DNA from: Escherichia coli | GTDB lineage: Bacteria > Pseudomonadota > Gammaproteobacteria > Enterobacterales > Enterobacteriaceae | DNA: 64,000 bases | Reading direction: 5' to 3' (one strand) | Assembly: GCF_013315695.1 (NCBI RefSeq) | Contig: NZ_CP054353.1 | Shown here: positions 23,797 through 24,257 of the stretch, one piece after another | Numbering within the stretch: the stretch's first letter is position 1 | How the letters are laid out: every line of letters starts with the position of its first letter | The notes under the pieces: generated by a model | Databases searched by the model: none | The model's input: the letters and a program-made list of their open reading frames with translations, nothing else | Told to the model about the DNA's origin: nothing | Translations under genes and position numbers: made by a program

Positions 23797-24257
23797 CTAC
23801 AACCCCTCAAAAGGGTAATTTTTACGCACCTGTGGCAACGCAATAATTTTTCCGTCAAAATCCCAGAATGACCTCTCAATGATCTCTCCGCCGTTTACCG
23901 CATCCAATACCAGTACCCGCATATTTTCATCCAGGCCAATCGTTCCTTTATCAAAGGCTTTATGATGTATCGCGCAAAGCGCCAAGCCATTGGGAATTTC
24001 ACAAGGGCCACCATGTTGTTTCCATTTTATATGTGTCGCTTCCAGTGAGACGGTGGAGTTGCCGTAACAAATATTAAAGCTACATATTGCGCACTGGTAG
24101 TTATAAGCGCGTAATACATGTTTGCGAAATAATGGGTCACGCTGCTTACGGATTTGCTGGAGAGCAAAAAAAGGCTCGTCAGCGATTTACTGGAAGCCAT
24201 TGATATCCCTGGCAGTGAAATAATTGCGATCATGCTCGCAAATTTTCTGCTGTTCAA
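23797..24257 (-). pseudogene. HNH endonuclease-like gene disrupted by frameshift
   Basis: C-terminal frame encodes ...YNYQCAICSFNICYGNSTVSLEATHIKWKQHGGPCEIPNGLALCAIHHKAFDKG; N-terminal part (ORF 24027..24257) is in a different frame, frames diverge at an A7/T7 run at 24166-24172. Confidence 0.55.

Follow-up and report, generated by a model that had tools for sequence, protein, structure and literature searches.

Results and discussion

Organization and identity of the locus

The DNA analysed here is a 64-kb window of Escherichia coli sequence (the window, below), and the locus of interest lies on its minus strand, in the region between a defence island and nanS-nanM-nanC-fimB. A reading frame that extends from position 24183 downward, IADEPFFALQQIRKQRDPLFRKHVLRAYNYQCAICSF...LEATHIKW...NGLALCAIHHKAFDKG...NYPFEGL*, contains a match to the Pfam HNH_2 domain (YQCAICSF...LEATHIKW...NGLALCAIHHKAFDKG; PF13391, E 1.4e-8), and the HNH core in it retains every catalytic and zinc-binding residue (CxxC, H, N and CxxHH). 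A second ORF of 76 amino acids (24257-24027, minus strand, TTG start) overlaps this HNH frame in another frame, which confirms the arrangement described in the first-pass annotation of this DNA, an HNH motif region and an N-terminal ORF in different frames. By tblastn, the HNH half is 65-84% identical to seven homologues, and its protein identity to the intact 290-aa E. coli alleles is 83-84%. The coordinates of the individual features are collected in Table 1.

Table 1. Features of the restriction endonuclease remnant, in window coordinates.
Feature	Position	Strand	Basis or remarks
5' leader and promoter region of the restriction endonuclease gene, common to intact alleles	24201..24299	-	
Native ATG and first 20 nt (MASSKS plus 2 nt) of the SBD-HNH gene	24181..24200	-	ATGGCTTCCAGTAAATCGCT, matches the intact 873-nt gene exactly over nt 1-20
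Junction of the 436-bp internal deletion, 24181|24180	24180..24188	-	nt 21-456 (codons 7-152) gone; alignment
TAA that closes the HNH frame upstream	24184..24186	-	AGT AAA (codons 4-5) read out of frame; no nonsense mutation
Gene 3' half: linker and HNH nuclease domain, codons 153-290 of the intact protein	23765..24180	-	Profile, tblastn, PGAP
T7 run (A7 on the + strand)	24166..24172	-	In frame with homologues on both sides; from substitutions CTGGGTTTTGAT -> CCTTTTTTTGCT
HNH_2 catalytic core (CAIC ... H ... NGLALCAIHH)	23926..24090	-	PF13391, fragment residues 32-86, E 1.4e-8
Secondary lesion: 1-nt loss, G5 -> G4 (C4 on the + strand)	23803..23806	-	Alignment, tblastn, PGAP

The identity of the gene is given by profile and annotation alike. 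Queried with the unframeshifted fragment of the sister allele A3, a repaired version of the window fragment, the NCBIfam model NF045808 (PT-DNA_restrict) returns 192 bits (cut-off 180 bits), and only profile positions 148-284 of 284 are covered. RefSeq PGAP describes the same DNA as 'phosphorothioated DNA-binding restriction endonuclease; frameshifted; incomplete; missing N-terminus' in two pseudogenes, AC9VVF_RS21810 (NZ_OZ547117.1) and EW995_RS15240 (NZ_CP035884.1), whose DNA is 100% and 99.8% identical to the window, respectively; the former maps to window positions 23765-24186.

Intact alleles of the gene occur in strains MLI114 and E2348/69. The intact allele is an 873-nt gene encoding 290 aa (2576-3448 of locus L005). 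The gene order in MLI114 (nanM, nanS, an HNH remnant, the intact gene, a 100-aa hypothetical protein and a type III Res helicase) is the same context as in the window, and the E2348/69 allele adjoins McrBC. In the intact protein, residues 5-142 can be aligned with the ScoMcrA SBD crystal chains 5ZMO, 5ZMN and 5ZMM (E 6e-8 to 3e-7), and residues 182-236 constitute the HNH_2 domain.

The break in frame

A DNA alignment of the window with the intact alleles locates the true break in frame close to the 5' end of the gene. The first 20 nt are identical, a gap of 436 columns follows, and the sequences are then colinear down to the stop codon; immediately after the 20-nt head, the window continues as GACGAG..., corresponding to the intact gene from nt 457 (codon 153) on. 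The offset of the downstream anchor is 436, with the best breakpoint within nt 17-20. Because 436 is not a multiple of 3 (436 mod 3 = 1), the retained start at 24200 is out of frame with the HNH half. The junction sits in an imperfect direct repeat, AAAT(C/T)GCT, the two 8-bp copies of which are AAATCGCT at the gene 5' end and AAATTGCT in the linker, and in which GCT constitutes an exact microhomology. An identical junction is present in AF3, LSN03, A3, SCU-485 and 32-4.

Given that the alignment with the ScoMcrA SBD extends over residues 5-142 of the intact protein, the deleted codons 7-152 cover the SBD. A single 436-bp deletion between the imperfect 8-bp repeats has removed the whole SBD and split the native start codon from the HNH frame. 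Slipped misalignment in situ could have produced this deletion, as could microhomology-mediated joining in the course of recombination with a divergent allele; it probably arose once and then spread by descent or by island transfer. A tblastn search of the whole 64-kb window with full-length homologues yielded nothing significant for the SBD half at any other position.

The DNA upstream of the junction is recognizable as the start of the same gene. PGAP places the start of the intact gene at the ATG equivalent to window position 24200, 8-12 nt 5' of which lies a Shine-Dalgarno-like AGGGA motif, and the leader upstream of this codon is 95-99% identical to the stretch 5' of the annotated ATG in MLI114, E2348/69 and ~2950 E. 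coli genomes. A promoter and terminator scan of 23700-24450 gave nothing beyond chance level. The 'N-terminal ORF' of the first-pass annotation does exist as a reading frame; its TTG start (24257) falls inside this leader, however, and most of its length is noncoding, consisting of ~57 nt of 5' leader, the 20 nt of true coding sequence and, for the remainder, out-of-frame read-through of the HNH half. The 76-aa ORF has no Pfam match, and tblastn detected no significant homologue match in any frame 5' of 24186. We also considered the TAA at 24184-24186 as a nonsense mutation (GAA->TAA in '...SIQEE|IADE...', with LEQQKICEH and LAQQILEAH weakly alike), and rejected this candidate, as the DNA alignment shows the upstream sequence to be the 5' end of the same gene in an out-of-frame reading.

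A second disruption is found near the 3' end. The window carries G4 where the sister alleles A3 and 32-4 carry G5, so that the last 12 codons are frameshifted and translation ends at a premature TAG (23797-23799) in place of the ancestral TGA stop (23765-23767); in the tblastn alignments, the last 10-16 residues fall in a different frame. The PGAP label 'frameshifted' is given to the AF3 and LSN03 copies and not to that of A3, and it refers to this 3' G4 lesion rather than to the A7/T7 run. An exact G4 60-mer occurs in 7 genomes from differing laboratories and hosts, compared with 301 genomes for the exact G5 61-mer, and G4 is therefore a real, recent and secondary mutation in an already dead gene. 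It is found in the small lineage to which the window belongs.

The A7/T7 run

The first-pass annotation had placed the divergence of the two frames at the A7/T7 run, and had offered phase variation, simple decay or a homopolymer sequencing error as possible causes. The run is indeed present at 24166-24172, and the inactivation of an HNH nuclease gene by decay is borne out. The frames do not part there, however: the break is the deletion junction 8 nt upstream of the T7 run, and each of the seven homologues produces one continuous single-frame tblastn HSP, 24186->23803, straight across the run. The window reads GAC GAG CCT TTT TTT GCT CTC CAG where the intact gene reads GAC GAG CTG GGT TTT GAT CTC CAG, stretches of equal length that encode IADE-PFFA-LQQ and IADE-LGFD-LQQ, respectively. 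Since length and frame are those of the intact alleles, the T7 was made by point substitutions in the linker that had no effect on frame, and it is fixed at 7. A run of this length is unremarkable here, as the local G+C content is 36% and the window contains 24 homopolymers that reach 7 nt or more, including 21 A7 or T7 runs.

A reading in which 1-nt slippage in the run split one gene, the tract being either a phase-variable switch or a sequencing error, draws on the position of the run between the stop of the HNH frame (24184-24186) and that of the other frame (24027-24029), where it is the only obvious place for a frame switch, and on the fact that a T8 would give one ORF from the native ATG into the HNH domain. 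Against it, intact homologues keep frame and length on either side of the run, the actual discontinuity is the 436-bp deletion, the upstream ORF beyond its 20 coding nucleotides is leader and read-through, and the 'ON' product would still be devoid of the SBD. Comparison across genomes is equally unfavourable. T7 was found in every deletion allele inspected, and neither T8 nor C2T6 occurs in the identical context among 5426 genomes from many laboratories and platforms, counts that refute phase variation at the run and exclude a sequencing error. Tract-length variation of the kind expected for a contingency gene was not seen among related isolates (370 genomes with the junction, 7 of them read base by base), nor is there a tract length that restores the gene, as T8 gives only a 134-aa protein that lacks the SBD. 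We regard this reading as having a negligible likelihood. A homopolymer beside a frame break need not be its cause, a caution that applies to sequence scanning of this type.

Distribution among complete genomes

The junction and the intact gene were counted by BLAST in 5426 complete E. coli genomes. A 130-nt junction-spanning probe, covered over at least 80% of its length, identifies the deletion allele in 370 of these, such that ~7% of complete E. coli genomes carry the dead allele; all 8 of the 8 sampled rows in this class span exactly 130 nt. Probes with T8 or T6 found, as their best matches in the 5426 genomes, T7 genomes aligned with one gap, and a probe ending in T8 was matched only through T7. 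T7 was present in 7/7 genomes read base by base, one of which, SCU-485, has C1T7 instead of C2T7, with an altered frame relation; this census of the run rests on top-ranked BLAST rows (8 sampled) and the 7 genomes read, of 370. The numbers of matches with at least 99% identity differ slightly across probes (1301, 1291 and 1296), which leaves room for a handful of run-edge variants such as the C1T7 of SCU-485.

The 5' end of the gene is more widespread than either allele, being retained in ~2950 genomes. A 516-nt probe is covered over at least 80% in ~1985 genomes, 370 of which carry the deletion allele, and a full-length copy may be present in roughly 1600 genomes (~30%), an estimate from two-piece BLAST matches of which two copies were checked. 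In the ~2950 of 5426 genomes, the leader and the first ~65-100 nt of the gene are kept and the DNA that follows differs: the retained 5' end (equivalent to 24181-24300) is succeeded by the full gene, by the deletion allele, by a 150-nt truncation next to AbiE (L725) or by other cargo. The restriction gene itself seems to contain the point at which the variable part of the defence island begins.

Constraint and allelic ancestry

Comparison of the HNH half with the intact alleles gives dN/dS values of 0.22-0.26 (based on the A3 sequence), whereas values between intact alleles are 0.04-0.06. Changes in the HNH half from GC to AT outnumber those from AT to GC (27 vs 10), and 5 of 51 family-conserved residues are replaced in the fragment (G36S, R40C, D42G, A51T and V103I, in fragment numbering), compared with 0 of 51 in comparably close intact alleles. 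These data are suggestive, though not conclusive, of relaxed constraint in the HNH half, under which the remnant may have evolved since the deletion.

The divergence of the HNH half is not, however, a simple clock for that decay. Relative to MLI114, the HNH half has a dS of 0.28, as opposed to 0.07 for the flanking helicase and nanM genes and a difference of ~2% in the downstream intergenic DNA. As the HNH half is far more diverged than its flanks, part of the divergence is due to a different allelic ancestry and not to decay since the deletion. Neutral decay alone was accordingly rejected as the explanation of the 10% by which the HNH half has diverged: the flanks are only 2-3% diverged (dS 0.07 vs 0.28), and one homologue (P0002) has a C-terminal stretch of 49 residues that is identical to the fragment, so that ancestry, whether allelic or recombinational, has contributed.

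Potential for expression

Translation from the native ATG at 24200 would yield a nonsense peptide of 57 aa. The HNH frame contains no ATG, GTG or TTG between the stop at 24184-24186 and a TTG at 23985 (codon 67 of the fragment), which lies 3' of both the CxxC motif and the first catalytic His. With no start before the catalytic motifs, no nuclease can be made.

Two readings would nevertheless grant the locus a product. The U7 tract might serve as a site of -1 ribosomal frameshifting or transcriptional slippage, so that a low level of an SBD-less HNH nickase is made from the native promoter. Read in the frame of the native ATG, U UUU UUG does conform to the X XXY YYZ heptamer, slippage by -1 leads exactly into the HNH frame, and the HNH catalytic residues are kept; a T8 or a -1 slip at this site would join the ATG to the HNH domain in an SBD-less protein of 134 aa, or 146 aa if G5 were also restored. 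An SBD-truncated SprMcrA, moreover, is an active non-specific nickase (PMC7461809). The features that accompany programmed -1 frameshifting are otherwise missing, with neither a stimulatory structure 5-9 nt downstream nor conservation of both frames: no convincing structure was found, as the best hairpin starts 16 nt downstream and has a z of -1.7, with 7/200 shuffles folding at least as well. A UUG codon in the A site favours slippage poorly in E. coli, and runs of fewer than ~9 give inefficient slippage by RNA polymerase. Also weighing against recoding are the G4 frameshift, which removes the C-terminal 12 residues in the window lineage, the C1T7 of SCU-485, which changes the frame relation, and the five replaced family-conserved residues together with the raised dN/dS. 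On this balance, we consider recoding highly improbable, and the same holds for the idea that the dead locus may leak traces of an SBD-less, sequence-non-specific HNH nickase via slippage at U7; were such a leak to occur, the nickase activity might add to defence or toxicity. By analogy with the truncated nickase, an expressible SBD-less copy might be harmful, which would fit the surviving allele being silent.

Alternatively, the HNH half could itself be a functional, free-standing nuclease gene that is translated from an internal start. The fragment is entered in some databases as 141-aa 'HNH endonuclease' proteins (P0001, 82 member sequences), and the core motifs are intact. The start codons argue otherwise, the first of them being the TTG at 23985 beyond the CxxC and the first catalytic His; in addition, PGAP treats the fragment as a pseudogene, and the fragment starts exactly at the deletion junction inside a known two-domain gene. 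This alternative carries almost no weight.

Relation to known restriction systems

EcoWI is an E. coli SBD-HNH enzyme of 33.4 kDa with >350 enterobacterial homologues (PMC7461809). It cuts GpsAAC/GpsTTC DNA and restricts dnd+ plasmids (PMC7461809, PMC9521924). The intact E. coli alleles resemble EcoWI in SBD-HNH architecture and in mass (33.1-33.2 vs 33.4 kDa). The window copy shares with EcoWI-type homologues a 3' half that falls in NF045808 positions 148-284 and a location in a defence island; unlike them, it lacks the whole SBD, has two frame disruptions and cannot encode the enzyme. ScoMcrA of Streptomyces coelicolor (SBD-SRA-HNH; PDB 5ZMM, 5ZMN and 5ZMO; PMC6224610) is similar in that its SBD aligns with the intact allele and in that both use an HNH effector, whereas SRA and head domains are both absent from the E. 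coli family, and the window remnant is without the SBD as well. SprMcrA-S, an annotated short form of SprMcrA that is missing 87 aa of the SBD, is a non-specific nickase in vitro (PMC7461809). The window gene is likewise a naturally annotated, N-terminally truncated SBD-HNH gene. In contrast to the window copy, in which the entire SBD is gone, the join is out of frame and the HNH domain has no start codon, SprMcrA-S still encodes an expressible protein.

We conclude, with a probability of roughly 93%, that the locus is the dead remnant of an EcoWI-like, phosphorothioate-dependent type IV SBD-HNH restriction endonuclease at the nanS-proximal edge of the defence island. With respect to the NF045808/EcoWI family, the C-terminal HNH domain (PF13391 type, CxxC...H...N...CxxHH) is present, the N-terminal sulfur-binding domain is absent through deletion of codons 7-152, and the uninterrupted ORF of ~290 aa is absent through the 436-bp deletion and the G5->G4 frameshift. 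The locus is a pseudogene that descends from this family and has no functional membership in it. As a pseudogene it is ordinary and already annotated in RefSeq, where the retained 20-nt native 5' end and the deletion junction are unrecognised; what is new relative to PGAP is the exact lesion, a microhomology-flanked deletion of the SBD that keeps the native start, and the population count. The import is mainly one of correct annotation; the border of this E. coli defence island is variable, and decayed defence genes such as this one are numerous there.

Neighbouring genes

Divergent to the restriction pseudogene, at 24300-24404 (+), lies the remnant of a second and unrelated HNH endonuclease, of which the last 34 codons, ...CPNCHAMLHRRKPPFTPEELKALMDANKSN, remain. 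Intact versions of 216 aa and 181 aa are present in L725 and E2348/69 (PF01844), and the same ~580-bp 5' loss is seen in MLI114, in which the adjoining restriction gene is intact. On the other side, between the type III restriction gene and the pseudogene, a 100-aa ORF (23151-23453, -) is conserved in many E. coli genomes together with the island; its dN/dS relative to MLI114 is 0.12, and it has no Pfam, NCBIfam or PADLOC match. The three large genes at 13705-23104 (+) encode a DrmD-like SNF2 helicase (PADLOC DrmD, E 4e-199), a type III methyltransferase (1039 aa) and a type III restriction enzyme (1126 aa), and resemble a type III R-M module to which an SNF2 protein has been added, in a CP4-like island with Ag43, YeeR/S and CbtA-CbeA. 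In other strains, McrBC or AbiE occupies the same spot.

Two genes beyond the island border are annotated as pseudogenes in identical DNA. In the window, nanS (24412-25419, -) is one continuous ORF of 335 aa; PGAP, on identical DNA, annotates a sialate O-acetylesterase pseudogene missing its C-terminus (~24826-25392) and a 29-aa antisense 'hypothetical protein' (24404-24493), and nanS may have had its 3' part replaced where it meets the island. The type 1 fimbrial switch recombinase gene fimB (28752-29354, +) is annotated as a pseudogene with an internal stop in AF3, a RefSeq genome that is 100% identical here, and the corresponding window ORF is only 161 aa in length (28752-29237). Further along the window, four ORFs of exactly 167 aa each, distributed over both strands (43259-43762, 44434-44937, 57456-57959 and 59104-59607), look like copies of one insertion sequence.
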